This document shows, one piece after another, positions 13,885-38,242 of a stretch of 64,000 nucleotides of DNA (its first letter is position 1; the number at the start of each line of letters is the position of its first letter). The stretch comes from Candidatus Harrisonbacteria bacterium (GTDB taxonomy: Bacteria; Patescibacteriota; Minisyncoccia; UBA6257; UBA11618): positions 4,912 through 68,911 of the forward strand of contig JAHFLN010000001.1 in NCBI GenBank assembly GCA_023244835.1. Direction: 5' to 3'. Below the pieces are notes generated by a model. It saw nothing but the letters and a program-made list of their open reading frames with translations. It did no database searches and was not told the origin of the DNA. The position numbers and the translations under genes are program-made.

Positions 13885-14307
13885 TTATGAGGAAATTTCG
13901 ACAGATCCTTTCCGAGGGCCGGGCACGGCGCCGCGGATGGAAACTTCGCGCGTTTCGGCATTTACCGCGACCACTTTCAAGCCTTTCACGGTTTTCCGGA
14001 TAACGCCCATGTGGCCTGCCATGCGCAAGCCGGGAATGACGCGCTGCGCGGCCGTGTTTCCGATCGAGCCCGGGGCGCGGAAACGGTTCTTTTGACCGTG
14101 GGTTTTCGGGCCGCCGCCGAAATTATGGCGCTTCACCACGCCGGCGAAACCATGGCCCTTCGTGGTGCCGGTTACGGCAACGAGCGAATCTTCGGCGATC
14201 GTTGAAATATCGCCCGCTTCGTCGAGTTTCACGAGGGTTACAGGAATGACAACGTCGCCTTTCCAGACCTGCGTCATTTTCAGTTTCTTTCCGGTTAATC
14301 TAGCCAT
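13885..14307 (-). CDS. rplC: 50S ribosomal protein L3, unusually short (140 aa)
   Basis: KMTQVW...GHGFAGVVKRHNF...GAVPG motifs; lacks ~65 aa internal region relative to E. coli L3. Confidence 0.85.
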   Translation of the reverse strand: MARLTGKKLKMTQVWKGDVVIPVTLVKLDEAGDISTIAEDSLVAVTGTTKGHGFAGVVKRHNFGGGPKTHGQKNRFRAPGSIGNTAAQRVIPGLRMAGHMGVIRKTVKGLKVVAVNAETREVSIRGAVPGPRKGSVEISS

Positions 14308-14455
14308 ATGCGACTATCGTGAAAACAGTTTTTTAATAATAGAGTATCCGACTGCTTTTTGCAAGGAGTATTGCCATATCAAGCGTCCCGTGGCATACTG
14401 GCTCCGCGTCAGGTCTTCGAAAATCTACCATCTCCTAATCAGAAAGGAGGCTCGC

Positions 14456-15157
14456 ATGCCTTCTCAATCGAATCCGTCGCAACGGATTCTCATGGTTCAT
14501 GCCTATGGATTCCGCGATGCCGCGCATCTTGGCGCGCTTACGCTCGCCGTGTGCAGGAAAGTCTTGAAGCATGCCGACGATTATGACCGGATCATCCTTT
14601 TGGGCGGCTGGGACACGAAAGGAAAGCCTGCCCGCCCGACTTCAGCCGAACTCATGGCTATATGGCTTATCGAGCATGGCGTCTCTCCGAACAAGCTCGT
14701 CGGCCAAATCACTGCGGGAGAGCGTTCCCGAAACCGACGGCCTGCGCGCGACACCATCGAAGAAGCAGATTTGGCGGGGATCATTCTCCGGGATCTCTAC
14801 CCTGGCGCGCATTTGCAGGAAATCCGCTTCGATGCCGTAGGCGCTTGGTTCCATGCGCCGCGCATCAAGATAATTTGGTGGAAACGAACCCCGCGTCTCG
14901 GGCGATTCCTGCATGCGTTCTCGTGGCGCATGCTCCTGCCCGACATGTGGTGGCGGATGTTCGAGGAGATTCCCGGCATCTGGCTTACTCGGCGCGATCC
15001 GCTCGGTACGGGAGATTTCTTCCGATGGTTGCGTCGTGGACGAACGCATGAGCATGTCATGAGTGAATATTCCGCGAATACCATCGATGCGTGGTATCCC
15101 GAACGATCCGTTTTCGATCGGCCTGCGGCATGCACGAGCCTGCCCGCATCGGAATGA
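14456..15157 (+). CDS. DUF218 (YdcF/SanA-like) domain protein
   Basis: AAAGGAGG Shine-Dalgarno at 14443-14450; RIILLGG...SAELMAIWLIEHGV...RDTIEEA pattern; the upstream part of track ORF 14162..15157 is antisense to rplC and discarded. Confidence 0.55.
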   Translation: MPSQSNPSQRILMVHAYGFRDAAHLGALTLAVCRKVLKHADDYDRIILLGGWDTKGKPARPTSAELMAIWLIEHGVSPNKLVGQITAGERSRNRRPARDTIEEADLAGIILRDLYPGAHLQEIRFDAVGAWFHAPRIKIIWWKRTPRLGRFLHAFSWRMLLPDMWWRMFEEIPGIWLTRRDPLGTGDFFRWLRRGRTHEHVMSEYSANTIDAWYPERSVFDRPAACTSLPASE

Positions 15158-15323
15158 CCGGCTCAATGCCCTCATTCCAGCTCTTTCGCGTTTTCTCCCT
15201 TTTTTGCCGTCTTGTCCTCATTAGGATCGGACGGCATTTGATTTTATATTCGATATGTGGCATACTAGGCGCAGCTCGAGTAGGCATATCGCCCGCTCAC
15301 CAACTTGAACAAGGAGACCGCCC

Positions 15324-15698
15324 GTGCTTAAGCGATTCGTGATCTTCATGCTTTTGAATGCCGAGGGACTTCCCCGCGGCGGCGGAGGCTGCAAAGACTT
15401 CATGATGACTGATGATGGCAAAAACATTGCTTCGTGGGATAGTCAGGATGAGGCCATTGAGGCCCTTCGAACGCGATTCCCTCTTCGATGCAATGTCGCG
15501 CAAGTGTGCGACACGAATGATAATTCTTTCGTTGAGCTTCTGCTGAAACGTGTTTGGGAGCTTCCCGAGACGCCGAAGTCGCAGCAGCAGCAACGAGGAG
15601 GAGGCGACCAGTCACGCAGCGATCGAGAACGGCCGCAACAGCAGCACTCTTCGAACCCTCCGCCTCCGAAAGGCGATGGCGGCGGCCCTTCGAAGTAA
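15324..15698 (+). CDS. Hypothetical secreted or membrane protein with low-complexity Gln/Gly/Pro C-terminus (GTG start)
   Basis: AAGGAG Shine-Dalgarno; TTGATT-17-CATACT promoter at ~15230-15265. Confidence 0.4.
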   Translation: MLKRFVIFMLLNAEGLPRGGGGCKDFMMTDDGKNIASWDSQDEAIEALRTRFPLRCNVAQVCDTNDNSFVELLLKRVWELPETPKSQQQQRGGGDQSRSDRERPQQQHSSNPPPPKGDGGGPSK

Positions 15699-15730
15699 TT
15701 TTCTTGCGATAGACGCATCCTTCACCCTCC

Positions 15731-15756
15731 CTCGCCCTTTCCGGGCGAGTTTTTTT
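15731..15756 (+). terminator. Rho-independent terminator (CTCGCCC-TTTCC-GGGCGAG-T7)
   Basis: Perfect 7 bp stem plus T7. Confidence 0.65.
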
Positions 15757-15761
15757 GTATG

Positions 15762-15787
15762 AAAAAACCGCCTTTCGGCGGTTCTTT
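15762..15787 (-). terminator. Rho-independent terminator after rpsJ (CCGCC-GAAA-GGCGG plus T-run on minus)
   Basis: Hairpin plus A6 on plus strand. Confidence 0.55.
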
Positions 15788-15789
15788 CA

Positions 15790-16116
15790 TTACATCATCT
15801 TTATCTCAATATCGACGCCCGCGGGCAGGTTGAGCTTGGAAAGCGCTTCAACGATGCCCGGCGTGATATTGAATATATCTATCAGCCGCTTGTGCACGCG
15901 GAGCTCGAATTGCTCGCGCGAGTTCTTATGGACGAAGGTCGAACGGTTCACCGTATACTTGTGAATCTCCGTCGGGAGCGGGATCGGCCCCATCACCTCG
16001 ACGTCATATCGTCTCGCGGTTTCAACGATCTGGCGCGCCGAGCTGTCGATCAGCTTGTGATCGTACGCCTTGATGCGGAGGCGGAGCTTCTCTACTTTCG
16101 GCTTTTCCTTGACCAT
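15790..16116 (-). CDS. rpsJ: 30S ribosomal protein S10
   Basis: [14 protein letters not shown]...GPIPLPT S10 motifs. Confidence 0.93.
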
Positions 16117-16143: not shown

Positions 16144-17343
16144 CTATTTATTTATCTTCGTCACGACGCCCGCTCCTACGGTCTTGCCGCCTTCGCGGAT
16201 CGCGAAGCGCTGCTTTTCCTCGAGCGCGACCGCCATAATAAGCTTGACGTTGATCTTGATCGTGTCGCCCGGCATGACCATTTCTGTTCCTTCCGGCAGG
16301 ATCACCTCGCCTGTTACGTCCGTCGTTCTCATGTAGAACTGGGGTTTATATCCCTTGAAGAACGGGGTGTGACGGCCGCCTTCCTCCTTGCTCAATACGT
16401 AGACCTCGCACTCGAAGTCGGTGTGCGGCGAGACGGAGCCGGGCTTCGCGAGCACCTGGCCGCGCTCCACGTCCTCCTTCTTCAAGCCGCGGACCAAGAT
16501 GCCGACGTTGTCGCCCGCGCGACCCTCGTCCAAGAGCTTGTTGAACATTTCGATGCCGGTTACGACGGTCTTCTGGCTCGGGCGAAGACCGATGATTTCG
16601 ACTTCCTCGTTGACTTTCACGATACCGCGCTCGATACGGCCGGTTACGACCGTGCCGCGGCCTTCAATTGAGAAAATATCTTCGACGGGCATAAGGAAGG
16701 TCTTGTCGGTCTCGCGGACAGGCTCGGGGATGTACTCGTCGAGCGCTTTCACGAGATCAAGGATCGGCTGGACTGACGGGTCTTCGAGGCTCGAAGATTC
16801 AAGCGCCTTCAAGCCGGATCCGCGAATAACGGGGATCTGGTCTCCCGGGTATTCGTATTTCTTCAGCAATTCGCGGACTTCTGACTCAACGAGGTCGATG
16901 AGCTCCTTGTCGTCGACCATGTCGCACTTGTTCAAAAAGACGATGATCGAGGGAACGCCGATCTGGCGCGCAAGCAGAATGTGCTCGCGGGTCTGAGGCA
17001 TCGGGCCGTCGGTCGCTGAAACCACGAGGACCGCGCCGTCCATCTGGGCGGCTCCCGTGATCATGTTCTTGATGTAGTCTGCGTGACCCGGCGCGTCGAT
17101 GTGCGCGTAGTGCCGTTTCTCGGACTCGTATTCCGAGTGGTGGATAGAAATGGTGATTCCGCGGGCCTTTTCCTCCGGGCTCTTATCGAGCTCGTCGACG
17201 GTCAGCTCTTTGCCGGCCAAGCCCTTCATGTGGAGGACGTGGGTAATAGCGGCCGTGAGCGTGCTCTTGCCGTGGTCGACGTGACCGATCGTTCCGACGT
17301 TTACGTGCGGCTTAGACCGCTCGAATTTTGCCTTTTCTGCCAT
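16144..17343 (-). CDS. tuf: Elongation factor Tu
   Basis: [17 protein letters not shown] and NKCD GTPase motifs; 399 aa. Confidence 0.97.
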
Positions 17344-17438
17344 GTGTGCTGTTTTTTTACCTCTTATTTATATATGTTCTTTTTTCGACGAAAGTAACGA
17401 TAAGCATACCAATCGCCATGGGGACTGTCAATACGATA

Positions 17439-18443
17439 TTAGTACGCTTCCGGAACCCCGTTTTTAATGCGTTTCAGCACTAGATCTCGGACGCTCGTTC
17501 CGTTCCCGTCGAACATACCCGAGCCGTCGATTCCCTCCTTCGTGCAGGCATAGTCGCCCTTACACGCGCCTGCCTTGGCGATGAGGAGTTCCGCCGACTG
17601 TTTCGAAAGCTCGTATATCGCCCCCTTGCCGATTTTGGCCATATCTCCTGGAAATGAATACGCGACTCCTTCTACCAAAGGACGGAGCGCCGGCAATTCG
17701 ACGGCGTAGGAAGAGAATACGGGCTGCGTTATGCCTAAATCCTTCAGTTTTTTCAATCCTTGCGCGAAGAAGAAGGAAATATCGGTCGAGAAAATCGCAT
17801 CGTATTCCGCTCCTTTGAGCTTTAGGAGGCCCGAGGAAATATCTTTTTCCGTGCCCGTGAATATGACTTCTTTCGCGATATGGTCCTCTCCGTACGCTTC
17901 TTTAAAACTATCCGCGAGGGTCTTTGAGAATGCGTTTTGGTAGGAAATAACGGCAACTTTCTCATATTTCAAAGTATCGTGCATCTGTCTCGCTAAGAAC
18001 GCCGCTTCGCTTTCCAGGGCATATTGCATGTCATACATATTCTCCCCGCTTTCCGCATAGAGCTTTTGCGAAGCGGCCGAAGGGACGACGGCGAGGATTT
18101 CAGCTCCCTTCATGAGTGGCGCGACTGCTTCCTGCGGCGAACCGCATGCGGGACCTATAATAAGGTTCACTTTGTCGAAATCGACTAGCTTCTTATACAC
18201 CGTTACGGCTTCTTTCGGATCGCATTTGTCATCTTCGTATATGAATTCGGCATCAGTGCCGCCGAATGACGCTTCTACCCCCTCTTTCATTTCCGCGCCG
18301 TAATCGGCGGCGATGCCCGAGAGCGGCGCGATCACGCCGATTCTGACTTTAATCCCATCCGCTTTTTTCGATGTGCGAAGTAACGCCATGTAACCGCCTA
18401 TCGCAACGACGATGATCGCGAGCCATAACCAGATGCTTTTCAT
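17439..18443 (-). CDS. ABC transporter substrate-binding protein, LivJ/Peripla_BP_6-like, N-terminal TM anchor
   Basis: MKSIWLWLAIIVVAIGGYMAL anchor; paralogous to 18448, 20031, 21170, 30416 and 34224. Confidence 0.8.
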   Translation of the reverse strand: MKSIWLWLAIIVVAIGGYMALLRTSKKADGIKVRIGVIAPLSGIAADYGAEMKEGVEASFGGTDAEFIYEDDKCDPKEAVTVYKKLVDFDKVNLIIGPACGSPQEAVAPLMKGAEILAVVPSAASQKLYAESGENMYDMQYALESEAAFLARQMHDTLKYEKVAVISYQNAFSKTLADSFKEAYGEDHIAKEVIFTGTEKDISSGLLKLKGAEYDAIFSTDISFFFAQGLKKLKDLGITQPVFSSYAVELPALRPLVEGVAYSFPGDMAKIGKGAIYELSKQSAELLIAKAGACKGDYACTKEGIDGSGMFDGNGTSVRDLVLKRIKNGVPEAY

Positions 18444-18447
18444 GGCC

Positions 18448-19521
18448 TTATTTGATTTCTTTTACGACGAACACGCCGTCCCCCCAGGCGGCATAGCCGC
18501 TTCCGTCGAAATTAATCGTGCCCGTCAGCCCTGCATAGTCCTTGACGGCGCGGATGCTGTTCGCGATTTCGTCAGATGTCTTCGCGCCTGCTTTGATCGC
18601 CGCGCCTACTAAAGACATCGCGTCATATGCCGTCTGCGTGCTTGGCGCGACCTCATCAGTCGAGCCGTACGCCTCTTTGAATTTTGCGCTCATCGCATCC
18701 GACATTGTGAAATCAACCATATAGGTTCCTGTGAGGATCGGAATGGTCGTTTCGTTGATCGTTTGTCCGCCCGGGTAGACTATGAGTGCCTTAATGCCTT
18801 GTTCCTTGGCTTTTTTTATGAATGGGATCGCCTGCGGCTGGACGAGATTTACTACGATGCTATCTGGCTTTTGCGCTTTGATTTTTGCGATCACCGTCCT
18901 AAAATCCTTCTCGTCCGGATTCGCTATATGCACGTCGTCCACGATTACTACGCCGTAGCCGGATGCAAGCTTTTTGACGTTTTCCGTAACCTTGTCCATG
19001 AAGGCGTTTGCCGTGGTTATGACAATCGCCTTCTTCATATTCCGATCTTTCGCGAATTTCAATTCCTGCTTCGCCCATCCTTCGTATGAGACGCCGAGCG
19101 AGAATACGTAGGGCTGATAGGACATATCGCTCAGGCCCGAGGGCGAGATCATCGCCACTTTCGCCTCTTTAGCTATCGGCGCGACTGCCTCGAACCATTC
19201 TGTCCATTGCGGTCCTATGATCGCAACTACCTTATCTATGCTTATGAGCTTTTGCGCGGCTGACACGCATTTCGGGATGTCCGACGCGCAGTCTTCCGAG
19301 ATAAGCCTGATATTCAGTCCGTCCGCCCGTAGTTCCTTCACGCGCAATGCGACGGCTTTCTCTTCCCCTACGCCCCACGAGCTTCCGAAGCCCGTCACGT
19401 TTGTTAACTGACCGATAACGATTTCCCTTTCTTCGGATGGGGTAATTTTTTTATCCGATAACGTAAGCCATCCACCCACTATCACCACCAGGACCGCGAG
19501 CCACAGCAAGGGATTTTTCAT
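18448..19521 (-). CDS. ABC transporter substrate-binding protein, LivJ-like paralog
   Basis: MKNPLLWLAVLVVIVGGWLTL anchor; Peripla_BP_6 pattern. Confidence 0.8.
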   Translation of the reverse strand: MKNPLLWLAVLVVIVGGWLTLSDKKITPSEEREIVIGQLTNVTGFGSSWGVGEEKAVALRVKELRADGLNIRLISEDCASDIPKCVSAAQKLISIDKVVAIIGPQWTEWFEAVAPIAKEAKVAMISPSGLSDMSYQPYVFSLGVSYEGWAKQELKFAKDRNMKKAIVITTANAFMDKVTENVKKLASGYGVVIVDDVHIANPDEKDFRTVIAKIKAQKPDSIVVNLVQPQAIPFIKKAKEQGIKALIVYPGGQTINETTIPILTGTYMVDFTMSDAMSAKFKEAYGSTDEVAPSTQTAYDAMSLVGAAIKAGAKTSDEIANSIRAVKDYAGLTGTINFDGSGYAAWGDGVFVVKEIK

Positions 19522-19546
19522 ATCCCCATGCTAGCTTCGGCATGCA

Positions 19547-19578
19547 TAAAAAACAAGCGGGGCGAAGGGCCCCGCTTG
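19547..19578 (-). terminator. Rho-independent terminator after ORF 19613..19948
   Basis: CAAGCGGGGC-GAAG-GGCCCCGCTTG plus T-run on minus. Confidence 0.6.
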
Positions 19579-19612
19579 GTACGGAAATCCATGATTACCG
19601 ATCCTTGCATGG

Positions 19613-19948
19613 TCAGAGATGCAGGGCGAGCGCGACCAGATTATGCTCGCGGCACAGATGCGTATCGCCAATCGCCGGAGCGTTCTTGCATGTCCAGCAC
19701 ATCTCATCATCGGGGGCATCGGGAGCTGATGCGATCAGGCTTTCCGCCTCTCTCACGTCATCAGGGCTAAGGAAGGGAATCGAATAGGTATTCAAGAGCA
19801 TCAACTGCAGGAGCCGCGAAGCCGCCGCATATTGCGCCTCGAGCTGGTCCGCCCGATTGTCATCCCCGAGCCAGAACACTTCTCGATCGCCCGCTCTCCC
19901 GACAACCGTAGGAAAGCCGCTTGCGTTAGGACCTCGTTCACGACTCAT
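19613..19948 (-). CDS. Hypothetical 111 aa protein
   Basis: ORF followed by its own terminator; GC-consistent codon usage. Confidence 0.4.
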   Translation of the reverse strand: MSRERGPNASGFPTVVGRAGDREVFWLGDDNRADQLEAQYAAASRLLQLMLLNTYSIPFLSPDDVREAESLIASAPDAPDDEMCWTCKNAPAIGDTHLCREHNLVALALHL

Positions 19949-20030
19949 ATGTCACCTCGTTTCGGTTTCGATTGGAATACAAGGGATTTCTCCCACTGCC
20001 GGACACGATACCACGAAACCAATGCGTCGC

Positions 20031-21152
20031 CTAGATATCCGTGAGCGCTCCCGCCTTGATGCGACGGACCGAGAATTCCCTCGCCGTATCGCCGTTCACA
20101 TCGATCGTAATCATGCCCGTGATGCCTTGGTATCCTTTCGTCGCATACAATGCATCGCGTACGCACGCCGATTCCGTGCCGCCGCATTTTCCGATCGCGT
20201 CGGCTAATACGTTATAGCCGTCAAACGGCAGGGCCGCATAGATTTCCTGGCTTGGCTTCTTTCCGTATGCCTTCTCGTATGCCGCCATATATTCCACGAA
20301 TGCCGGGGCTGAGGCATCGTACGCGTATTGCGTGATGTAGAACCCCTCCGCATCCGGGTTTACTACAACCTCCTTGAAGCCGAAGTATTCGTTGCCGAGC
20401 ACGGGGATCTTCAAGCCGAAGTCCTTGCCCTGCTTGATGAACGCATTCGCCGTCACGGTTGAATTCATCACTGCGACTATGATTTGCGGCTTCAAGGCCG
20501 CGAGTTTCGCGAGCTCTGTCCGCACGTCGTACTCCTTCGAATTCACGCCTTCCGCGCCCAGGATGGCATTCCCCGCTCTCGCTCCGAAGTCCGCGACGAA
20601 CGCGTCTTTCATGCCCACGGTATAGTCCGCATTCTCGAAAAGGATAGCGACGCTCTTATAACCTGCCTTCGCGAGGAATGCCGACATCGCTTTCGCGGTC
20701 GCGACGGACGATGCGGACGTGCGGAACACGTAGTCGCCCGCATCGGTAATCTTCGGCGAGGTAGAAACCGGCGTGAAGAGAACGGCCTTCGCGGTTTCGG
20801 TGATCGGCGCCATGGAAAGCATCGAACCGCTGCAGACGCCGTTCACCACTATCGAAACCTTATCGACGGCGAGGAGCTTCTGCGCCGCAGAGGCCGCCTG
20901 CTTGGGATCGCATGCGTCGTCTTCATATACCATTTCTACCTTCTTGCCGGCGATTTCCGGCCGCTCTAAGGCGGCGAGCTTCCAGCCGCTCGCAACATCC
21001 TCGCCGGACGATCCCGCAACCGGGCCGGTGAAGGGGCCGACATAGCCGATCTTAATCGTATCTGCTCCTGCGCCGTCCTTATTTCTTTTAAACGCCATAT
21101 AACCCCCGACTGCGACGATGATTATTACGACTATTATCCAGATTTGTTTCAT
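20031..21152 (-). CDS. ABC transporter substrate-binding protein, LivJ-like paralog
   Basis: MKQIWIIVVIIIVAVGGYMAF anchor. Confidence 0.8.
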   Translation of the reverse strand: MKQIWIIVVIIIVAVGGYMAFKRNKDGAGADTIKIGYVGPFTGPVAGSSGEDVASGWKLAALERPEIAGKKVEMVYEDDACDPKQAASAAQKLLAVDKVSIVVNGVCSGSMLSMAPITETAKAVLFTPVSTSPKITDAGDYVFRTSASSVATAKAMSAFLAKAGYKSVAILFENADYTVGMKDAFVADFGARAGNAILGAEGVNSKEYDVRTELAKLAALKPQIIVAVMNSTVTANAFIKQGKDFGLKIPVLGNEYFGFKEVVVNPDAEGFYITQYAYDASAPAFVEYMAAYEKAYGKKPSQEIYAALPFDGYNVLADAIGKCGGTESACVRDALYATKGYQGITGMITIDVNGDTAREFSVRRIKAGALTDI

Positions 21153-21169
21153 ATGATTCTTTCTTCGGC

Positions 21170-22309
21170 TTAATCAACCGGCACCGGCGCGTCGTTCCTG
21201 ATTTGCTTCATCACGAAGCCTAAGTCCGAGTTCCCATTCGCGTCGAGGGAGAACGTGCCCATCAAGCCCGTCCACTTCTTTATGTTTTCGAGGAGCCAAT
21301 CCTTCACTTTCGCGCTGTCGTCACCCTCCGCTCGCAAACCCACGACCATCATCATGATCGCGTCATGCGTTGCCGCGGCATGGAAGGCGATGAGCGGATC
21401 CCTCTCGTATTTCGCCTTATATGCCGCGAGAAAATCCTTCCACGCGGCGCTTTCGCCGTCATATGCGGGATCGGCGAAGTATAAGCCCTCGAACGAGCCG
21501 ACGATTTTCTTCGCGTCGCCGTTCAAGGCAAGCGTGAAGTCTGAAAAAAGCGGCGCATCCAGCTTTTGTTCCTTGACTTGCTTCATGAAATTGCCCGCGG
21601 AGAGCCCCGTCTGCGAGGCGATCAATATCGCATCGGCACCCCGCGCTTTCAGTTTCGCTATGATAGTGCGGAAATCGTTCGTCCCGGGCTGGAACTGCTC
21701 GTCTATCGCTATTGCGCCGCCGCCCGCCATGATCGTTTCCTTGAAGCTCTTCGCAATATCTAACGTATATTCAGTCACTTCGGAAACCGAGGCTACTTTC
21801 TTATAGCCCATCTTTAGCATCGCATTCGCGATGTCCCGGCCCGCCAGTATGTCAGAATTCGCTGTGCGGAAAATGTATTCGCCTGCGGCATCCACATTGC
21901 TTCCACCTGTTACCGGCGTCATCACGATCGCCTTGTTCTCGTTCGCGACAGGAGCCGCGGCGATCGTGCCGTTGCTACACATACCACCCACGATGTAGCG
22001 GATGCCGTCTACCGAGACGAGCTTCGTTATGGCCGCAAGACCGGTCTTACTGTCGCATTTCGAGTCTTCGACCGTGAGCTCGAGCGGGTGGCCGTTCACG
22101 CCTCCTTTGGTATTTATCTCGTCGATCGTGAGGCGGGCCGCATTCACCATATTCTCGCCCGCGACGGCCAGGTCTCCGCTCAATATCGTCGCGATGCCGA
22201 TTTTTATCGGCGCCGCATTCGCATCGAGAGGCGTCGCCTTGTCTTTATTAACTATCAGATATCCTCCCGCCACTATAACGACCGCGGCCCATATCCAGAG
22301 ATTTTTCAT
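21170..22309 (-). CDS. ABC transporter substrate-binding protein, LivJ-like paralog
   Basis: MKNLWIWAAVVIVAGGYLIV anchor. Confidence 0.8.
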   Translation of the reverse strand: MKNLWIWAAVVIVAGGYLIVNKDKATPLDANAAPIKIGIATILSGDLAVAGENMVNAARLTIDEINTKGGVNGHPLELTVEDSKCDSKTGLAAITKLVSVDGIRYIVGGMCSNGTIAAAPVANENKAIVMTPVTGGSNVDAAGEYIFRTANSDILAGRDIANAMLKMGYKKVASVSEVTEYTLDIAKSFKETIMAGGGAIAIDEQFQPGTNDFRTIIAKLKARGADAILIASQTGLSAGNFMKQVKEQKLDAPLFSDFTLALNGDAKKIVGSFEGLYFADPAYDGESAAWKDFLAAYKAKYERDPLIAFHAAATHDAIMMMVVGLRAEGDDSAKVKDWLLENIKKWTGLMGTFSLDANGNSDLGFVMKQIRNDAPVPVD

Positions 22310-22384
22310 ATCGAAATACTACCTGTTAGAGCCTCATAAAATCAATCGATAAAAAATACTCCGTCATTCGACGAGGTATCTTCC

Positions 22385-24490
<2,106 letters not shown>

Positions 24491-24501: not shown

Positions 24502-24969
24502 TTACCAGCCGAAATGAGCGAACGCGCGGTTCGCTTCGGCCATGCGGTGCATGTCGAGCTTCTTCTTAACCGCCGTACCCTCGTTTTTCGACGCCGCGAT
24601 GAATTCCTCGGCCAGCTTTTCAGCCATTGACTTTCCCTTCTTCGCTCCCGCGGTCGCGATCAGCCAGCGGACGGCAAGCATGTACTGGCGTTCGGGGCGC
24701 ACCGGGCGCGGCACCTGGTAGTTCGCGCCTCCCACGCGACGGCTCGACACCTCGACTGCTGGGGAGATGTTCTCCAGCGCCTTCTCGAATACCTCGATCG
24801 GAGCCTGCTTGTGCTTCTTCTCGATCAGGTCAAACGCATCGTAGACGATCTTCTCGGCCACGGCCTTCTTGCCATCCTCCATTATATAGTTGATAAAGCG
24901 ACCGACGGCGATATTACCGTGCTTCAGGTCTCCTGCGTGATCGCGCTTATAATTACGTTTCTTTCTCAT
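24502..24969 (-). CDS. rpsG: 30S ribosomal protein S7
   Basis: 155 aa S7-like sequence; synteny rpsL-rpsG-fusA. Confidence 0.92.
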
Positions 24970-25087: not shown

Positions 25088-25513
25088 TTATGCGGCCTCG
25101 GCCTTCTTAGGGGTTTTCGCGCCATATTTAGAGCGCTGCTGCTTCCTATCTTTCACGCCGCTCGTGTCGAGGACTCCGCGGAGGATATGGTAGCGCACGC
25201 CCGGAAGATCCTTAACCTTGCCGCCGCGGATTACGACTACCGAGTGCTCTTGGAGGTTGTGGCCTTCGCCCGGGATGTATGCCGTGACTTCGCTGCCGTT
25301 CGTAAGCCGTATACGGGCAACTTTCCGAAGCGCCGAGTTCGGCTTCTTGGGGGTCGTCGTGAAGACCTTCACGCATACGCCGCGCTTGAAGGGTGACGCC
25401 GAGTTCACCGGCTTGTTCAGGATATTATTGAAATACTTCAAAAGGGCCGGAGACTTTGATTTCGTCTTGAGCGGCTTCCTTCCTTTACGCACCAATTGTC
25501 GCATTGTCGGCAT
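25088..25513 (-). CDS. rpsL: 30S ribosomal protein S12 (with C-terminal Lys-rich extension)
   Basis: [13 protein letters not shown]...[11 protein letters not shown] motifs. Confidence 0.93.
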
Positions 25514-25693: not shown

Positions 25694-26305
25694 ATGGCGA
25701 CATTCGCCGAACAGCGAGAAGCGGAGCATCAAAAATTCCTCGAGACATTGCTCCAGGCAGCCCGGACGTATGCCGAAACGGCAGCGCCCGACGAGTATTT
25801 CGATTGGCAGAAGCTCGTAGCCTCTACGATGATTCTCACACCAGAAGTACTTCGCGAGATGATCGGCGAACGCACGATGATCCTGCGAAGCCAGGCCCTT
25901 TCGAAGGCCCTCCAGAACCATTCCGTCGCGGTCATGTGCGTGAAGACGCTCCTCGACTGGCATACTCTCGATCCCGACTGGAGTCCCGAGCGCATGGACA
26001 TGGGTATCGCCCAGGAATTCCTTGCCCGTGTCATCGTCAGCGTCCATCTCTTCAGCAATACGCCGCAAGAGGCGGCGTATCTCGTATGGCGGCTCATTGC
26101 CGCCATGATCATGTCCTATGGCGCGGAAATGACGAATGGCTATCTCGAGCAGATGGTCAGCGGTCAGACGCTCCTCTACGGAAGCTCTGCGATGGATGAC
26201 GTTCCCAGATCGGAATGCCTCCGTCGTGACGAGATGATCGCTACCATGCCCGAGCGCTATGCGATTCCCAAAATCAACGCGCCGCTCACGTGGGCCGCGC
26301 CGTGA
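25694..26305 (+). CDS. Hypothetical protein
   Basis: AGGAG Shine-Dalgarno; TTGACA-17-CATATT promoter at ~25600-25632; terminator after. Confidence 0.5.
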   Translation: MATFAEQREAEHQKFLETLLQAARTYAETAAPDEYFDWQKLVASTMILTPEVLREMIGERTMILRSQALSKALQNHSVAVMCVKTLLDWHTLDPDWSPERMDMGIAQEFLARVIVSVHLFSNTPQEAAYLVWRLIAAMIMSYGAEMTNGYLEQMVSGQTLLYGSSAMDDVPRSECLRRDEMIATMPERYAIPKINAPLTWAAP

Positions 26306-27134: not shown

Positions 27135-27623
27135 ATGCCCGTATTACACTGGCATACCGCCGCGTGGGATCTGCAAGCTGGCTGGAAGAGTCTCGCGAGA
27201 ACCCTTTCATCCCAGTACCTCGGAATCGAAGTCCGCGGTCAGGAGATGTTCGAGAGCCATGTCAGGTGGGCCGCATCGTTCGCCCCCCACATCCTCTCGG
27301 ATTTCGAATGGCCTGAAGTCGAAGATTCGCACGTCCTCATGCTCGTCAGCATGACGAATGTCGATTCTTTGGAACCCGCCGAGTCCGTCCTCGTGATCGA
27401 GCAGGCCCATTTCATACGGCAGGTGCGATGGGAGCGGGTTCCCGGAACCGCGCTCATCATCCCCAATCGCCCGCTCGAGGACATGAAGGCAATCATTGCG
27501 GGGCAGTCGTTCGGCCGCGTTCAAAAACTGGGAACGCCCGGAACGATGTTCATGGTTTCCGATGATACGGCCGATGCCATGATTAGCGCGGCGCTCGGAC
27601 GCCGAGCTCTCATGCCTGCCTGA
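27135..27623 (+). CDS. Hypothetical protein
   Basis: GAAGGAGG Shine-Dalgarno; terminator downstream. Confidence 0.5.
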   Translation: MPVLHWHTAAWDLQAGWKSLARTLSSQYLGIEVRGQEMFESHVRWAASFAPHILSDFEWPEVEDSHVLMLVSMTNVDSLEPAESVLVIEQAHFIRQVRWERVPGTALIIPNRPLEDMKAIIAGQSFGRVQKLGTPGTMFMVSDDTADAMISAALGRRALMPA

Positions 27624-27662
27624 ACGCGAAAAATCATGCGCGACTATGCGGAACGTCGCATG

Positions 27663-27691
27663 CGCCGGGCTCTCACAGCCCGGCGTTTTTC
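27663..27691 (+). terminator. Rho-independent terminator
   Basis: CGCCGGGCT-CTCAC-AGCCCGGCG plus T5. Confidence 0.65.
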
Positions 27692-27783
27692 ATCCTTGTA
27701 TAATTGACATTTATCAGAAAATAAAGTTTGATAATCGTGTTGTTACCCACCCCCGCATCTTTCACAACTCAAGGAGTCCCGTT

Positions 27784-28869
27784 ATGGGAAGGCTCGAAGT
27801 AATCAAGACCATTCCTGCACAGAAAGCCGTGCGCGCCCCGCGCATCGTGGAGCCTGCTCCGACCGCAGGCTTCGCGAAATTCACTGAATTTCAAGATGCT
27901 ACGGGAGCCGATCTCTCCCTCGACGATGCCCTTGTTCGCGCGGGCTATCTCGAGCATGCCGATGAAACGGCGTTCTTTACCCGCTATCGCGGCACCGTCG
28001 CCAGCCGTTTCTCGAAAATCGGGCTTGGAAAAGCGTTTCCGCCTTCCATCCGGCATCGGCTTAATGCGGCAACTCATCTCCAAGCGATCTTTGTCGATCA
28101 GCCTGAATTCCACGAAGCGCTCATTCTCGCGTGGGGATCCTATGCCGACGCCACTCTCAAGGCGGCCCGGAAAAGCCAGAGAGCGGACATTCTCGAGTCA
28201 TTCGGTTTTCCTTCCGGCTTTTTCGAGATCCATGAGCCGTCGGGCATGCCTATGACCACGATCGCCGTCTGGGGTATGGTGCCGGATAACAAAGGTCTCG
28301 CCTATGCGAAGGCGATGGACTGGCTTGCCGCCTTGGGGACTTTGAATCCTTATAAACGGAGGGATGCCCGCTCATTCGAGATCCGGCCGGGAATCAACAC
28401 CGTGTCGCTTTTTCAGCGGTCGCCGACCATTGCGCATACGGGACGCTGTCTCGCATCGTTCGGCATTCCACTTACGCATAATGAGGCTGACCGCCTCATC
28501 CGGAAAGCAGGATACGTTCCCGGAGGGTTCAAGGATCTCATCCAACATCTCACGCCGGAGATCATTCTCGGAATTCCAAACCCGAACTATCCCGACCTTA
28601 CGGGAAGGAACCAAACACCGGAACGGATCAATGGCATCGTTTCGGGCGCGCCGATCGTCGCGCTCGCATCTGCCGACGAGCACCATGTCCCCTGTTTCTC
28701 GCTTACTTCGACATACGGAGTTACGCTCGATGCGGCTTCCCTGGGAGGAGGCGGATTCCCGCCACACACCCGGTTCATAGCGCTTTCGGGTGCCCGTGAA
28801 ATAAAGACGCGATCTCCGTATGAGACACGAGACGTTCCCGGAACGACTCGCGAAGGCGTCCTGCTCTGA
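27784..28869 (+). CDS. Hypothetical protein (361 aa)
   Basis: TTGACA-17-GATAAT promoter at ~27707-27740; AAGGAG Shine-Dalgarno; track ORF 27646 start rejected because it begins inside the upstream terminator. Confidence 0.5.
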   Translation: MGRLEVIKTIPAQKAVRAPRIVEPAPTAGFAKFTEFQDATGADLSLDDALVRAGYLEHADETAFFTRYRGTVASRFSKIGLGKAFPPSIRHRLNAATHLQAIFVDQPEFHEALILAWGSYADATLKAARKSQRADILESFGFPSGFFEIHEPSGMPMTTIAVWGMVPDNKGLAYAKAMDWLAALGTLNPYKRRDARSFEIRPGINTVSLFQRSPTIAHTGRCLASFGIPLTHNEADRLIRKAGYVPGGFKDLIQHLTPEIILGIPNPNYPDLTGRNQTPERINGIVSGAPIVALASADEHHVPCFSLTSTYGVTLDAASLGGGGFPPHTRFIALSGAREIKTRSPYETRDVPGTTREGVLL

Positions 28870-28896: not shown

Positions 28897-28932
28897 CCAC
28901 TGCCAGGCCATCAAGCCAGGCAGTGGTTTTTT
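28897..28932 (+). terminator. Rho-independent terminator
   Basis: CCACTGCC...GGCAGTGG plus T6. Confidence 0.55.
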
Positions 28933-29671
28933 ATTTCTCCCCCAGGAAGATTTTCTCGAGCACGCCGGACGACAGAAGCTCCTCCGGCTTCCCTTGTGCC
29001 GCCACTTTTCCCTTCGCAAGCACATATGCCCGATCGACGATACCTAAGATTGATTTGATATTATGCTCAACAACCACGATTGCCGTCCCGTGACGCTCGT
29101 TGATCTCTTTAATATTTTCGAATACCTCCTTCACAATCTTAGGCGCTAAGCCAAGCGACGGCTCGTCGAGCAAAAGCACTTTGGGGTCAACCATCAACCC
29201 GCGGGCGATCGCGAGCATCTGCTGCTGGCCGCCCGACAGAGTTCCCGATTTCGTTCTCCGTTTTGCCTTCAGCGCCGGAAACGTTTCCATGACTTCGGCC
29301 ATGCGCCGCGCGAGCTCTTTTTTGTCGCCGACTATGAAGCCGCCGATCTCCAAGTTCTCCTCGACAGTCAGATATTTGAACACGCGACGCCCCTGCGGAA
29401 CGAAGGCGATCCCCCGCGCAACAACCTCGTGCGGCACCGGCTTAAACCGCTTCTCGTGCCATAAGACCTCGCCCGAATGGACGGGCGCGATGCCGAAAAT
29501 CGCCTTCAACACCGTAGATTTTCCCGCGCCATTCGGACCCATAAGAGCCACGATCTCGCCTTCATCAATCGCGACCGAGGCGCCGTCCAAGGCATGCACG
29601 CCCCCGTAGTGGACATGCACATCGTCGAGTTTCAGGAGAATTTCCTTTTCATTTCTGATTTCGGATTTCAT
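28931..29671 (-). CDS. livF: Branched-chain amino acid ABC transporter ATP-binding protein
   Basis: Walker A GPNGAGKST; LSGGQQQ signature. Confidence 0.88.
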   Translation of the reverse strand: MKSEIRNEKEILLKLDDVHVHYGGVHALDGASVAIDEGEIVALMGPNGAGKSTVLKAIFGIAPVHSGEVLWHEKRFKPVPHEVVARGIAFVPQGRRVFKYLTVEENLEIGGFIVGDKKELARRMAEVMETFPALKAKRRTKSGTLSGGQQQMLAIARGLMVDPKVLLLDEPSLGLAPKIVKEVFENIKEINERHGTAIVVVEHNIKSILGIVDRAYVLAKGKVAAQGKPEELLSSGVLEKIFLGEK

Positions 29672-29680
29672 AGTTCGAAT

Positions 29681-30412
29681 TTATTCCCCGAGGTACGCCT
29701 CGATTACGTCCCGGCGGGCAAGCACTTCGTCGGGCTTTCCCTTGGCTAAAAGACCGCCCGCATCCATCACGATTACGTGGTCGGAGAGCTCCCTGATCAA
29801 CTCCATATTATGCTCAATTAAAAGCACGGTCTTCCCCGCGGCCTTCAGCTCGCCGATAATCCCGACGATCACCCGCACCATCTCCTTGAAAAGCCCCGCG
29901 AACGGCTCGTCTAAAAGCACGATGTCCACATCCATAGCGAGCACGCGGCCGATCTCCACAAGCTTCCGCTGGCCGTATGACAGATTGTACGCGAGCTCGC
30001 GCCGCTTCTCCCACAGGCCGATCTTCTCGAGAACGGCCTTGACTCTTTCCTCGCGGTCCGCGCTTCCACGCTCGAGGAGCGCGGCAAGGGGGCCGCGCGC
30101 GGTCAATGCGACCATTATATTATCAGCAACCGTCATCTGCTCGAACAGGCGCACGTCCTGGAAGGTGCGCGTGATGCCGAGCCGCGGCAGGCTCTCGGGC
30201 CGTATCGCATGAAACGATTTTCCACCGACAACGACCGCGCCTCCCGTAATCGCGTGCATACCCGTCAAGACATTCACGAGCGTCGTCTTGCCCGAGCCAT
30301 TCGGACCAATGACGCTCGTGAGCTTCCCCTTCGCGAATGATATCGAGAGATCGCTTATGGCGTGGACTCCGCCAAAGCTTTTTTTAAGATTCTTTGTCTC
30401 CAGTATATTCAT
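29681..30412 (-). CDS. livG: Branched-chain amino acid ABC transporter ATP-binding protein
   Basis: Walker A GPNGSGKTT; LSYGQRK signature. Confidence 0.88.
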   Translation of the reverse strand: MNILETKNLKKSFGGVHAISDLSISFAKGKLTSVIGPNGSGKTTLVNVLTGMHAITGGAVVVGGKSFHAIRPESLPRLGITRTFQDVRLFEQMTVADNIMVALTARGPLAALLERGSADREERVKAVLEKIGLWEKRRELAYNLSYGQRKLVEIGRVLAMDVDIVLLDEPFAGLFKEMVRVIVGIIGELKAAGKTVLLIEHNMELIRELSDHVIVMDAGGLLAKGKPDEVLARRDVIEAYLGE

Positions 30413-30415
30413 ATG

Positions 30416-31564
30416 CTATTTAAACGGAATAAATGCGCCATTTCTGACCGTTTTCAATTCGAACTCCCCACCCAAGACCTGATGCTTTTCGTCGAACCCC
30501 AAGTCGCCTATAAACGCTCCTTTAATGCGGACTTTCTCAAGCGCGTTCCGAATCTCCTGCCCGTTCTTCGCTCCTGATCCGATCGCGGCGACAATAATAC
30601 GAACCGCATCATACGCATTCACGGCCGCAGGCCCTTGCGGATCTTCATTGTATTTCGCCCGATACGTTTCCTTGAATGCTTTCTGCTCCTCGTTTGCCAC
30701 CGGGTAGGTATAAATCACACCGTCCATCGCCGACCCGAAACTCTCAAGCACACTTTCGTCCTGGATGTCCGCGGCAGAGAGTATTATCGCCCTGAATCCC
30801 AGCTCCTTCGCCTGTTTCAGGAAACTTGCCTTTGTGTGCGGAGCGAGAAAGGAAATGAATACAGCCTCGATATTCGCCGTCTTCATCTTCGCAATGACAG
30901 TTCTAAAGTCCTGGATACCCGTCGGCATTTCATGTTTCTCCCCTATCTGAATGCCGTGGAAAGGAGAGGCTTCCTCGAAAAGCCGCGTCATCATCGTGCT
31001 GTACGAGTCCTGATCCCACACCATCGCGACCTTCTTCAACTCCACTCGCTCGGCATAGGCCTCGAGCGCCGCTATTTCCTTCCGTTGGGGCGCGTACGTC
31101 GAGAAAATATAGTCGATTGACTGCTTCTGGAACTCTAGCGCTTCCATAGCAGTATCAGGCGACACAGCCGGGGTCATAGAGCCGTTTATGACCGGGCTCG
31201 CTCCCTGGTAGGCATCGCCCCATGTGGGACCGACGATCGCTATGACATGGTCGGCGTTCACAAGCTTCTGCACGGCATTCACCGTCGTCTTATTCTCGCA
31301 CTGCGTGTCCTCGATCATGAAATCGATCTTCTTGCCATTCACGCCGCCCGCAGCATTCGCCTCGTCGACCGCCATCTGCGCCGCCTTCTTCTCGCCCTCG
31401 CCCCACTCGGCGCATACGCCTGATAGGCCGAATGCCCCGCCGAGTCGTACCGTCGACAGGTCGTCCAACTCCGCGACTTTCGCTTCGCGGCGAGACATTA
31501 CTAAGCCAATTCCCACGACAAGCAGCATAACAATGAGCGCGATATAGAGAGAATTCCTTTTCAT
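30416..31564 (-). CDS. ABC transporter substrate-binding protein, LivJ-like, TM-anchored
   Basis: Peripla_BP_6 pattern; inside livFG-SBP-livMH operon. Confidence 0.82.
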   Translation of the reverse strand: MKRNSLYIALIVMLLVVGIGLVMSRREAKVAELDDLSTVRLGGAFGLSGVCAEWGEGEKKAAQMAVDEANAAGGVNGKKIDFMIEDTQCENKTTVNAVQKLVNADHVIAIVGPTWGDAYQGASPVINGSMTPAVSPDTAMEALEFQKQSIDYIFSTYAPQRKEIAALEAYAERVELKKVAMVWDQDSYSTMMTRLFEEASPFHGIQIGEKHEMPTGIQDFRTVIAKMKTANIEAVFISFLAPHTKASFLKQAKELGFRAIILSAADIQDESVLESFGSAMDGVIYTYPVANEEQKAFKETYRAKYNEDPQGPAAVNAYDAVRIIVAAIGSGAKNGQEIRNALEKVRIKGAFIGDLGFDEKHQVLGGEFELKTVRNGAFIPFK

Positions 31565-32427
31565 AGTTTATATTCTCCGAACATGCCCTGCGGCCGATAC
31601 AGCATGAGGAGGACGAGAATCGCCCCGTACGCGACCTGGCGCATCTGCGCGGCGATGTCGGGCGGGAAACCTACGAACCGCAGGATCTCGGGCAAGAGGA
31701 TGAATACGATCGCCCCGAATACCGACCCGTTCACGTTCGCGAGCCCGCCCAAGATCACGAGCGACAATATGAAGATTGACTCATTAAGCGAGAAGGTTGA
31801 GGGATCGATATAGGAGATATATGAGGCGAAAAGCGACCCTGCGACCGCCGCGAGCATCGCGGCGATCATAAAAATAATGCGCTTGTACCGCGCCGTGTCA
31901 TAACCGAAGACCCGCAAGGCATCTTCATCTTCCCGAATTCCTTTAAGCGCCCTGCCAAACGAAGATTTCACGATCCATTGCGAAATAGCGTAGGTCAAAA
32001 GCGCGAAGACTATGGAAAGGATGAGGAATTGCGCGTTCGTGCGTATCGCCGTTCCAAACAACTCCGGCTTCGGAATACCCGGAATCCCCAAAGGGCCGCG
32101 CGTGACGCTCTGAACGTTCAGGAATATGCTGAACACGATTATATTGAAACCGAAAGAGACCAAAGCGTAATAGTCTCCCTTAAACTTCCCTGACACGATG
32201 CCGATGAACCATGCGGCTGCGGCCGCGCATACCATGCCGATCGCGGTTGCTTCGAAAAAGCCGTATCCACGAGACACCGTGAGGATGCCCACCGCATATG
32301 CTCCCACGCCATAGAACGCCGCGTGCGTCACCGATAGGAGCCCTGCGTAACCCACGACCAAATTCAAGCTCATGCCTAATATGGCATAGATCGAAGACAT
32401 GACGGCTAAATGGATAAGGTATTCCAT
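31561..32427 (-). CDS. livM: Branched-chain amino acid ABC transporter permease
   Basis: 288 aa polytopic permease. Confidence 0.85.
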   Translation of the reverse strand: MEYLIHLAVMSSIYAILGMSLNLVVGYAGLLSVTHAAFYGVGAYAVGILTVSRGYGFFEATAIGMVCAAAAAWFIGIVSGKFKGDYYALVSFGFNIIVFSIFLNVQSVTRGPLGIPGIPKPELFGTAIRTNAQFLILSIVFALLTYAISQWIVKSSFGRALKGIREDEDALRVFGYDTARYKRIIFMIAAMLAAVAGSLFASYISYIDPSTFSLNESIFILSLVILGGLANVNGSVFGAIVFILLPEILRFVGFPPDIAAQMRQVAYGAILVLLMLYRPQGMFGEYKL

Positions 32428-32428
32428 A

Positions 32429-33343
32429 TTATTTCTTCACGATCCCTTCCGGCCTTATGAGCAGGAATATGATCAATACGACGAACGCGATCGCGTCTTT
32501 CCATTCGCCGCTTATCTTCCAGATGCCGAAGTTCTCCGCGAACCCGAGCACGAACGCGCCTAAGAAGCCGCCGTAGAGACTCCCCACGCCGCCGATAATC
32601 GAAGCGATAGTTCCTTTTAAGAGCAGGTTCATGCCCATGGTCGGTTCGATGCCCGTATCGAAGCCGATCAGGATTCCCGCGACGCCCGCGATCGCCGAGC
32701 CGATGAAGAACACGCGGCCGATGATCTTGTTCGTGTCGATACCCACCATACGCGCGACTTCCTCATCGTCCTTTATCGCCGATACGGCCTTGCCGAAGAG
32801 GGTATATTTCGCGACGAGTCCCAAGACCGCCATGATCGCGAGGCCGCAAGCGATGATCACGACCTGCGTGTGCGTGATTATCGCGCCATAGACTTCGACT
32901 GAGCCCGACACGCCGCCGGACGATTCAAGCGCTTGGAATTGACTCGTGAAAAGAATCGCGATAACCGCCTGAATCGCCGTGAAAGCGCCGAGCGACGCGA
33001 CCATGAGCACCATATTCGACGCCTTACGCTTGCGAAGCGGCAGATAAACGAACTTGTCCAGCCCATAGCCGATGGAGCCCGCGACCACAGCGCCTATCAC
33101 GCACGTGACGACGACATTTACTGGCAAGGCGAATATCTTAAGGATGGCGAATACCGTATAGGCGCCGCATGCCGCAACCGCCCCGTGAGCGAGGTTAAAA
33201 AACTTGGTCGTGCCGTAAATGAGGTTGAATCCGAGCGCGATCAGGGCGTATATAGCGCCGGCGATCACGCTGTTCGCGATAAGTTGAGGCACGATGTCCA
33301 CATAAGGAAATATATAGGACTCACTCGTTTTCATCAATCGCAT
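32429..33343 (-). CDS. livH: Branched-chain amino acid ABC transporter permease
   Basis: Polytopic permease; start uncertain (MRLMKT at 33343 or MKT at 33334). Confidence 0.8.
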   Translation of the reverse strand: MRLMKTSESYIFPYVDIVPQLIANSVIAGAIYALIALGFNLIYGTTKFFNLAHGAVAACGAYTVFAILKIFALPVNVVVTCVIGAVVAGSIGYGLDKFVYLPLRKRKASNMVLMVASLGAFTAIQAVIAILFTSQFQALESSGGVSGSVEVYGAIITHTQVVIIACGLAIMAVLGLVAKYTLFGKAVSAIKDDEEVARMVGIDTNKIIGRVFFIGSAIAGVAGILIGFDTGIEPTMGMNLLLKGTIASIIGGVGSLYGGFLGAFVLGFAENFGIWKISGEWKDAIAFVVLIIFLLIRPEGIVKK

Positions 33344-35635: not shown

Positions 35636-35656
35636 GATTGGCAACTTTGAACCAAT

Positions 35657-38187: not shown

Positions 38188-38242
38188 ATTGATATTATAG
38201 AAAATAAATAGAAAGTATACAAATCAAGTTATCCACAAGGTC

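Follow-up and report, generated by a model that had tools for sequence, protein, structure and literature searches.

Why do four genes for substrate-binding proteins (SBPs) lie between fusA and tuf, how are they transcribed, and what would their products do? The question is raised by a 64,000-nucleotide stretch of DNA from a Candidatus Harrisonbacteria bacterium (assembly GCA_023244835.1, contig JAHFLN010000001.1; referred to as the window throughout), in which the genes SBP_A to SBP_D and a small open reading frame (ORF) of 111 amino acids, orf111, occupy the interval between the two str genes. From the comparisons described below, we consider it likely that the array consists of four old receptors of the HAAT family together with an orphan Cys/His gene, that it is transcribed in modules and served by one shared importer, and that its site is a loose junction.

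The ORF listing and Pfam scans give the minus-strand order rpsL-rpsG-fusA-SBP_D-SBP_C-orf111-SBP_B-SBP_A-tuf-rpsJ (Table 1), and the gene content and coordinates reported in a first-pass annotation of the same letters proved exact. The spacer between fusA and tuf measures 5041 nt, and that between fusA and SBP_D 75 nt. The canonical str unit comprises rpsL-rpsG-fusA-tufA, and the multigene insertions described for Proteobacteria in the same account lie between neighbouring operons, not within them (PMC6735719). The window retains the canonical gene order and strand, but differs in that fusA and tuf are 5 kb apart, with the interruption inside the operon and with predicted terminators and separate promoters. 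An identical layout is present in five contigs from different samples, and a sister species (L084) is found in two assemblies; the layout is thus repeated across independent assemblies and is not an assembly chimera.

The genome has a GC content of ~55%, which is unusually high for a bacterium of the candidate phyla radiation (CPR) within the class Paceibacteria. The best matches of its EF-G (up to 76% identity) come from Patescibacteria bins assigned to Candidatus Paceibacter, Paceibacterota, Parcubacteria and Liptonbacteria, together with bins under generic 'Saccharibacteria' labels, all from one bulk submission; this bears out the earlier suggestion of a reduced-genome organism. A homologous fragment was recovered from 0.1-µm-filtered Hainich groundwater. 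Within positions 13000–37000, an Rfam scan matched tRNA-Ser alone.

Table 1. Annotated genes and predicted transcription signals of the window.
Feature	Position	Strand	Annotation
promoter-like site	25568–25539	−	upstream of rpsL
rpsL	25088–25513	−	Pfam Ribosom_S12_S23
rpsG	24502–24969	−	Pfam Ribosomal_S7
fusA	22385–24490	−	Pfam EF-G domains
hairpin + U-run	22351–22384	−	just after fusA stop; moderate intrinsic-terminator candidate, −12.6 kcal/mol, z −2.6
promoter-like TTGATT-18-TAGTAT	22316–22345	−	−10 box ends 6 nt before SBP_D ATG
SBP_D	21170–22309	−	379 aa; PF13458 189.6 bits
SBP_C	20031–21152	−	373 aa; PF13458 169.8 bits; 17 nt after SBP_D
extended −10-like box TGGTATCGT	20005–20013	−	upstream of orf111; kept upstream of L088 homolog
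orf111	19613–19948	−	111 aa; no family match; between SBP_C and SBP_B
strong intrinsic terminator	19554–19578	−	after orf111; 10-bp stem, 8 GC pairs, T-run; −21.5 kcal/mol, z −4.5
promoter-like TTGTTT-17-TAGCAT	19528–19556	−	−10 box ends 6 nt before SBP_B ATG
SBP_B	18448–19521	−	357 aa; PF13458 167.5 bits
SBP_A	17439–18443	−	334 aa; PF13458 96.6 bits; 4 nt after SBP_B
tuf promoter candidate TTGACA-17-TATGCT + upstream TG	17403–17431	−	10/12 matches; ~60-nt leader, AAGAGGT ribosome-binding site
tuf	16144–17343	−	Pfam; downstream flank
rpsJ	15790–16116	−	Pfam; downstream flank
ORF	15324–15698	+	no family match; rpsJ–rplC junction
ORF	14642–15175	−	no family match; rpsJ–rplC junction
ORF	14246–15157	+	no family match; rpsJ–rplC junction
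ORF	25694–26305	+	no Pfam match; str–liv interval
ORF	27135–27623	+	no Pfam match; str–liv interval
ORF	27646–28869	+	no Pfam match; str–liv interval
livF	28931–29671	−	Pfam ABC_tran, BCA_ABC_TP_C set
livG	29681–30412	−	Pfam ABC_tran, BCA_ABC_TP_C set
SBP_E	30416–31564	−	Pfam Peripla_BP_6
livM	31561–32427	−	Pfam BPD_transp_2
livH	32429–33343 (or 33472)	−	Pfam BPD_transp_2
ORF	33447–34136	+	no Pfam match; livH–SBP_F interval
SBP_F	34224–35429	−	Pfam Peripla_BP_6
Tsp45I-type restriction enzyme	35657–36430	+	low-GC island
LexA DNA-binding domain + S24 peptidase + N6/N4 DNA methylase fusion	36427–38187	−	586 aa; low-GC island
DUF4238 protein	38243–39238	+	low-GC island

Divergence of the receptors

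The six paralogs of the window are 22–34% identical to one another in pairwise BLASTP comparisons, whereas each has a closer counterpart elsewhere. The EF-G of the sister species is 99% identical to that of the window, with a dS of ~0.5 for the ribosomal genes, and its SBP orthologs are 89% (D), 84% (C), 86% (B), 68% (A) and 77% (E) identical. In a neighbour-joining tree of the SBPs of the window and its relatives (100 bootstraps), each window SBP pairs with its sister ortholog, with 84% support for D and 100% for A, B, C and E. In no case is the nearest neighbour of a window paralog another paralog of the window, and each falls in a separate orthogroup. SBP_A, SBP_C and SBP_D each cluster with proteins of other Patescibacteria, while SBP_B and SBP_E form a loose clade with X2 and X3, two additional receptors of the sister species. 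Judged from this divergence, the four receptors of the array are anciently diverged, different paralogs. Comparison with the sister species yields dN/dS values of 0.084 (D), 0.096 (C), 0.085 (B) and 0.092 (A, for which dS is saturated), and all four genes are kept under purifying selection.

The four differ widely in their distribution. SBP_D is the most widely conserved member of the array, with more than 100 orthologs at 50–62% identity in Wolfebacteria, Nomurabacteria and other Paceibacterota, and SBP_C has a handful of relatives at 38–55%. The SBP_A ortholog of a further locus (L090) is 50% identical. SBP_B is lineage-restricted, with four close orthologs only (61–100% identity) followed by matches of at most 31%, and a metagenome scan with SBP_B as query returned no useful locus. 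Several homologs of SBP_C (P0137, P0139, P0142, P0214, P0233 and others) are far longer, at ~660–810 aa with two binding domains or 1149–1188 aa with three, and represent either fused tandem receptors or merged gene calls.

The junction and the array in relatives

The first-pass annotation had started from the premise that fusA and tuf are normally adjacent, which does not hold for this phylum. We surveyed 45 Patescibacteria loci in which fusA and tuf share a contig, together with seven non-CPR loci from the same search (52 loci). The spacer of the Patescibacteria has a median of 884 nt, exceeding 700 nt in 27 loci and 3 kb in ten, and three further Patescibacteria loci have no tuf within 10 kb, as against 13–497 nt in the non-CPR loci. 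Long spacers being common in the phylum, the interruption itself is ordinary and only the SBP cargo is particular to the lineage. Cargo is unrelated between genomes, and includes a subtilase with an Rce1-like protease in Candidatus Paceibacter (L007), a tRNA-binding-domain protein (L005), pyrimidine and purine synthesis enzymes, an asparaginase, an IS200 transposase and a RelB antitoxin, among others. We infer that the location of the array reflects a phylum-wide looseness of the fusA–tuf junction rather than a functional tie to translation.

Many Patescibacteria, among them L015, L017, L028, L032, L037, L059 and L071 (spacers of ~350–580 nt), have a small same-strand ORF of 75–136 aa between the two genes. 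Its N-terminus resembles the Phd/YefM antitoxin (PF02604; E values of 1e-6 to 2e-3, below cut-off), and in three cases it has an acidic tail with the terminal residues (E/D)DLPF, which recall the C-terminal tip of SSB. There is no visible toxin gene, and the window does not have this ORF.

An SBP gene between fusA and tuf was found in none of 80 representative relatives, and the array occupies this site only in a narrow lineage of two or three close species, at about the level of a genus; in the next relative, an SBP_D ortholog of 80% identity follows pheT, not fusA. Even within this lineage the content of the array differs. Seven receptors occupy 9.2 kb in the spacer of the sister species: D and C, with an oppositely oriented TrmB gene between them, are followed by a terminator and a reverse 92-aa ORF, and then by B, X1, X2, A and X3. 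The window is without TrmB, X1, X2, X3 and the reverse ORF and carries orf111 instead; in a third species (L088), B is preceded by both small ORFs. L090 has its orthologs of A, X1 and D in one array. From these comparisons, membership of the array changes by gain and loss even where species are nearly identical, so that its content turns over quickly, and its location is young.

The combination of D, a reverse TrmB gene and another SBP gene recurs in L086, L087 and L091, and further TrmB genes flank other SBP genes in relatives; the TrmB gene that follows SBP_D is convergent with it. A tblastn search of the window detected no TrmB homolog, and with only 17 nt between D and C the three-gene module is absent. 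Given its recurrence in the three relatives, loss of TrmB is the simplest reading for the window, in which case D and C are probably expressed constitutively. In archaeal trehalose/maltose ABC importers, TrmB-family regulators are encoded beside the binding-protein genes. The relatives share this arrangement, with TrmB-domain genes next to SBP genes, but the window is without TrmB and the SBPs are of the LivJ type rather than the sugar type. Between fusA and SBP_D, the sister species has an AT-rich stretch (L084 9888–9930) with a perfect palindrome, TATACAATTGTATA, that is absent from the window. This palindrome is a candidate TrmB operator, the window being without both. A 21-kb locus assigned to Wolfebacteria (L086, JGI 3300025309) encodes at least seven LivJ-type SBPs, five TrmB regulators and an AsnC-type regulator beside one permease pair, and a scheme of many receptors, many local regulators and one translocator looks like a general design of Parcubacteria.

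A single DNA repeat stands out in the region, 54 nt at the 5′ ends of SBP_A, SBP_B and SBP_D. Identity over the first 60 nt reaches 82% (B versus X1 of the sister species), as against ~25% for the mature domains, and the B-to-A junction of the window matches the B-to-X1 junction of the sister. Recombination between shared 5′ ends is therefore a plausible route for gain and loss of array members, as read from these similarities, and the 5′ end of SBP_A may itself be a recombinant of the sister's X1 and A. More tentatively, and with less than even confidence, the fusA–tuf spacer could be a phylum-wide cargo slot in which arrays are resized by recombination between conserved 5′ ends while the flanks stay fixed. 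If so, symbiont species with 99% identical EF-G would rapidly re-tool the solutes that they scavenge.

Two other origins have to be weighed against the retention of old receptors at a loose junction. The first-pass annotation had implied that the paralogs duplicated recently. A tandem duplication of one livJ in situ, with rapid divergence thereafter, would account for their tandem order, shared strand and common family, and for the likeness of their 5′ ends (repeat family D1; 50–82% nucleotide identity over the first 60 nt). Yet it is hard to reconcile with mature domains of 22–34% identity, with deep branches on which every window paralog is nearer to its own ortholog than to its neighbours, with the grouping of A, C and D among other Patescibacteria, with the occupation of the same site in a close relative and with the existing A, X1 and D array in L090, and we regard it as extremely improbable. 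Arrival of the cassette by horizontal transfer, as a genomic island or mobile element inserted into the str operon, is improbable too, if less severely so. The restriction of the layout to two or three closely related species would fit such an event, as would the GC content at third codon positions (GC3) of SBP_A and SBP_B (0.60–0.64, compared with 0.76–0.78 for fusA and tuf) and the IS200 transposase in the spacer of one other Patescibacterium. However, the borders of the block carry neither an integrase or transposase gene nor a tRNA, and no direct or inverted repeats flank it; its GC content lies in the native range, comparable to that of livHM and SBP_E, with no break in composition. In addition, the closest homologs are metagenomic, the named ones being all from Patescibacteria except one labelled Methylophilaceae, and the promoters of the array share the genome's own leaderless geometry.

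Predicted transcription of the array

The promoter-like sites before SBP_D and SBP_B have the same geometry, with the −10 box placed immediately before the start codon (Table 1). The sister species has TTGCAA-18-TATGAT-6-ATG before SBP_D and keeps the 6-nt leaderless spacing before D, C and B. The pattern extends beyond the array: among 75 long ORFs of the window, TAnnnT ends exactly 6 nt before the ATG in 13, compared with 0.65 expected (binomial P ~1e-13), with no excess at neighbouring distances (example starts are 22309, 19521, 38187, 54327 and 63749). This suggests that leaderless mRNAs are widespread in this genome, and the geometry is a useful annotation rule for it.

Conservation coincides with several of these signals. 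In the spacer between SBP_C and SBP_B, only the last ~50 nt before SBP_B are conserved in the sister species and in L088. The terminator after orf111 is the strongest of the region and is kept in L088 with a compensatory change in the stem, and the sister hairpin at the place after fusA is, at −24.2 kcal/mol, much stronger than that of the window. Across the 70 nt upstream of tuf, the window and the sister species differ at a single position. The signals would divide the locus into four units, rpsL-rpsG-fusA, D-C(-orf111), B-A and tuf-rpsJ, of which D-C(-orf111) and B-A would start at leaderless-type promoters and be separated by the strong terminator, while tuf-rpsJ would restart from its own promoter. 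The array is thus probably not part of one str transcript but transcriptionally self-contained. Whether tuf is still co-transcribed with fusA, a point that the first-pass annotation had singled out for checking, is answered in the negative by the predictions: the 5041-nt spacer, the hairpins after fusA and orf111, and the promoter-like sites before D, B and tuf are not those of a canonical co-transcribed str operon and suggest that the link has been lost.

A CxxC...CxxH motif is conserved in orf111, which also has a GAGGTG ribosome-binding site. Its one homolog in 5.8 billion proteins is 59% identical and of the same length, without indels, and likewise lies directly upstream of the SBP_B ortholog, in L088; the pair has a dN/dS of 0.18. 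No match was obtained in Pfam, NCBIfam or PHROG, and the AlphaFold model reaches a pLDDT of only 62.7. The extended −10-like box TGGTATCGT is shared with the homolog, but the −10-like motif TGGTATNNT has four matches in the window versus 2.9 expected and is not enriched; it is weak evidence for an orf111 promoter and was dropped as a promoter consensus. Of the earlier description of this ORF as terminator-bounded, the 3′ side stands, whereas no terminator was found between SBP_C and the ORF.

Receptor pockets, anchors and the shared importer

All four array SBPs exceed the gathering score of PF13458 (Peripla_BP_6; 31.7 bits) by a wide margin, although SBP_A matches profile positions 1–224 of 343 only, and the nearest solved structures are binding proteins of the LivJ/LivK type. 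The matches to the NCBIfam LivJ/LivK model PRK15404 (A 67.1, B 34.7, C 107.1 and D 133.7 bits) lie far below its cut-off of 477, as does the best NCBIfam match of SBP_B, to UrtA (TIGR03407; 55.4 bits, cut-off 492.75). The fold was checked for SBP_A alone, the most doubtful member of the array. Its AlphaFold model (pLDDT 85.9, pTM 0.79) adopts the two-lobed type I periplasmic-binding-protein fold, for which Foldseek returns 4gnr, 3td9 and 4n0q (E ~1e-19 to 1e-22, TM 0.80–0.82), and superposes on the closed LivJ/LivK structures 4gnr and 3td9. The C-terminal part of SBP_A is ~40 aa shorter, and the orthologs in the sister species and in L090 are equally short (329 aa). The confident model and the short orthologs rule out a pseudogene.

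To compare the ligand pockets, residues 3–323 of E. coli LivJ, taken from a PDB alignment, were aligned with the paralogs, and positions 18, 77–79, 100–102, 150, 202, 225–227 and 276 were inspected. The set of pocket residues is specific to each paralog, yet identical between the window and the sister species, and the SBP_D signature is retained in Wolfebacteria proteins of 59% identity. The Cys78-Ser79 pair of LivJ is kept in C, D, F and X1, with Cys-Gly in A, whereas B, E, X2 and X3 form a class with tryptophan at both positions 18 and 78. Ser79, Thr102, Tyr202 and Glu226 of LivJ are the residues that we take to grip the α-amino and α-carboxylate groups of the ligand. At the corresponding positions C has S/T/N/E, D has S/G/Q/(D225), A has G/A/I/Y and B has T/L/V/G, so that the set is largely kept in C and F, partly in D, and not in A, B and E. 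Within the array only SBP_C, with equivalents of Ser79, Thr102 and Glu226, comes near the full set and has the most LivJ-like pocket.

Solved members of the family bind amino acids, γ-aminobutyric acid (GABA), urea, aromatic acids, 2-oxo acids and pyroglutamate, and because the pockets of the paralogs differ as well, different ligands are plausible. C, and perhaps D, would bind amino-acid-like compounds, and A and B something else. The earlier proposal of a broadened substrate range fits the pockets, which differ between paralogs and are identical between orthologs. Precedent for pocket changes that retarget the family to other small molecules is provided by orphan HAAT binders, namely 4evq and 4f8j (aromatic acids, Rhodopseudomonas palustris), 8tg1 (urea) and 8wch (pyroglutamate, SAR11). 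These share the fold with SBP_A (TM 0.75–0.80), but with a structural-alignment identity of 14–19% there is no orthology at the sequence level.

Every SBP begins with MK or MN followed by 17–21 uncharged hydrophobic residues, usually ending in GG(Y/W), and none of the six N-termini in the window contains a lipobox cysteine. In the AlphaFold model of SBP_A, residues 3–24 form one helix. N-termini of this design recur in 116 SBP_D orthologs (within P0001–P0120; mean hydrophobic length 17.9), and the transmembrane anchor proposed in place of a lipoprotein signal is thereby extended to a clade-wide trait. The anchors are followed by a linker rich in lysine and arginine. A LivJ-like cysteine pair is kept in A, C, D and F in the alignment, which argues for an extracytoplasmic domain. 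The cell has no periplasm, and an uncleaved-looking helix probably tethers the receptors to its membrane. In Gram-positive bacteria and archaea, binding proteins are lipid- or helix-tethered at the membrane. The window SBPs would resemble these in being held at the membrane with no periplasm, and differ from the lipid-tethered forms in having a 17–21-residue helix ending in GG(Y/W) and no lipobox.

A single livHMGF set lies 6.6 kb from the array, flanked and interleaved by SBP_E and SBP_F (Table 1). Its genes give LivH/LivM/UrtB/UrtC-like NCBIfam matches, all below cut-off. A tblastn search over the 64-kb window detected no second permease, ATPase set or further binding-protein copy, confirming the earlier count of six binding proteins for one LivHMGF set. 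The receptors would hand their ligands to this only LivHMGF translocator nearby, widening the scavenging of one importer, and several orphan receptors feeding one ABC importer is the most likely function suggested by the gene content. E. coli LivJ/LivK and LivHMGF (HAAT, TC 3.A.1.4) belong to the same Pfam family, share the fold and likewise pair more than one binding protein with a permease/ATPase set; equivalents of LivJ Cys78-Ser79, Thr/Ser102, Tyr150 and Glu226 are kept in SBP_C and SBP_F. LivJ and LivK are ~80% identical. In contrast to the two of E. coli, the window has six receptors, mutually far more divergent, tethered by a helix rather than free in the periplasm; four of them have their genes between fusA and tuf, apart from those of the permease, and at 34–134 bits all six stay well short of the LivJ/LivK model.

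Some points weigh against the picture of a self-contained array feeding one importer. The hairpin after fusA is only moderate (−12.6 kcal/mol), and transcripts from the str promoter may read through it; the promoters are predicted from matches to the consensus, backed by conservation and positional bias; the docking of A–D to LivHMGF is argued for by family membership and proximity alone; and the distribution of lysine and arginine around the anchors, with five after and one before the hydrophobic segment of SBP_A and more after than before in 68% of SBP_D orthologs, is unusual, running contrary to the positive-inside rule for an N-in/C-out anchor. The first of these lends some weight to a placement of the SBP genes in the str operon for co-transcription at ribosomal-protein levels, as do the common strand of all genes with fusA and tuf, the short fusA–SBP_D spacer and the fairly high GC3 of SBP_C and SBP_D (0.70–0.72). 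We nevertheless consider this placement unlikely, given the cross-species conservation of the promoter-like boxes immediately before D, B and tuf, the −21.5 kcal/mol terminator in the middle of the array, the strong sister terminator right after fusA, and the unrelated cargo, some of it on the opposite strand, that other Patescibacteria have at the site. Slightly less likely again is that some or all of the four are not transport receptors but sensors or proteins of host contact or adhesion. AmiC is a LivJ-like cytoplasmic sensor, A and B are without the residues that hold the α-amino and α-carboxylate groups, the four orphans are not adjacent to permease genes, the anchors are atypical in their charge distribution, and relatives pair these SBP genes with TrmB regulators. 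However, a divergent pocket need not mean a role outside transport, since solved HAAT proteins bind ligands other than amino acids; the cysteine pair in A, C and D suggests an extracytoplasmic domain, and the same orthogroups stand beside permease genes in L086 and L091.

Other features of the window touch the array less directly. A low-GC island (35548–39238; 0.38–0.42 compared with ~0.55) adjoins tRNA-Ser (35548–35635), and the LexA–methylase fusion that it encodes is unusual. The rpsJ–rplC junction (13885–16116) is also interrupted, by ~1.5 kb of ORFs without family matches, whereas in a relative (L004) rplC starts 5 nt after rpsJ. A split rplC was discarded, as L3 has 140 aa here and 140–148 aa in close relatives and its length is a clade trait. 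Three of the four ORFs without Pfam matches around the liv genes were tested and gave no PHROG match; those at 25694–26305, 27135–27623 and 27646–28869 are also called as genes on the 289-kb source contig.

The arrangement is real but fairly ordinary, with orphan tethered HAAT binders that share one translocator at an often-occupied site. Some comparative interest attaches to the fast turnover of the array, the phylum-wide loose junction and the pervasive leaderless geometry; our literature searches found nothing on binding-protein arrays, fusA–tuf splits or leaderless genes in CPR. That rpsL-rpsG-fusA-tuf is usually not contiguous in Patescibacteria matters for operon-based annotation and for synteny anchors. 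The old, specialised receptors are kept in combinations that change even from one sister species to the other, and SBP_A–SBP_D and X1–X3 are concrete targets for ligand screens of what uncultured cells take up from their surroundings or hosts. The locus shows how a single ABC importer may be made to serve many substrates in an ultra-small bacterium that depends on a host.

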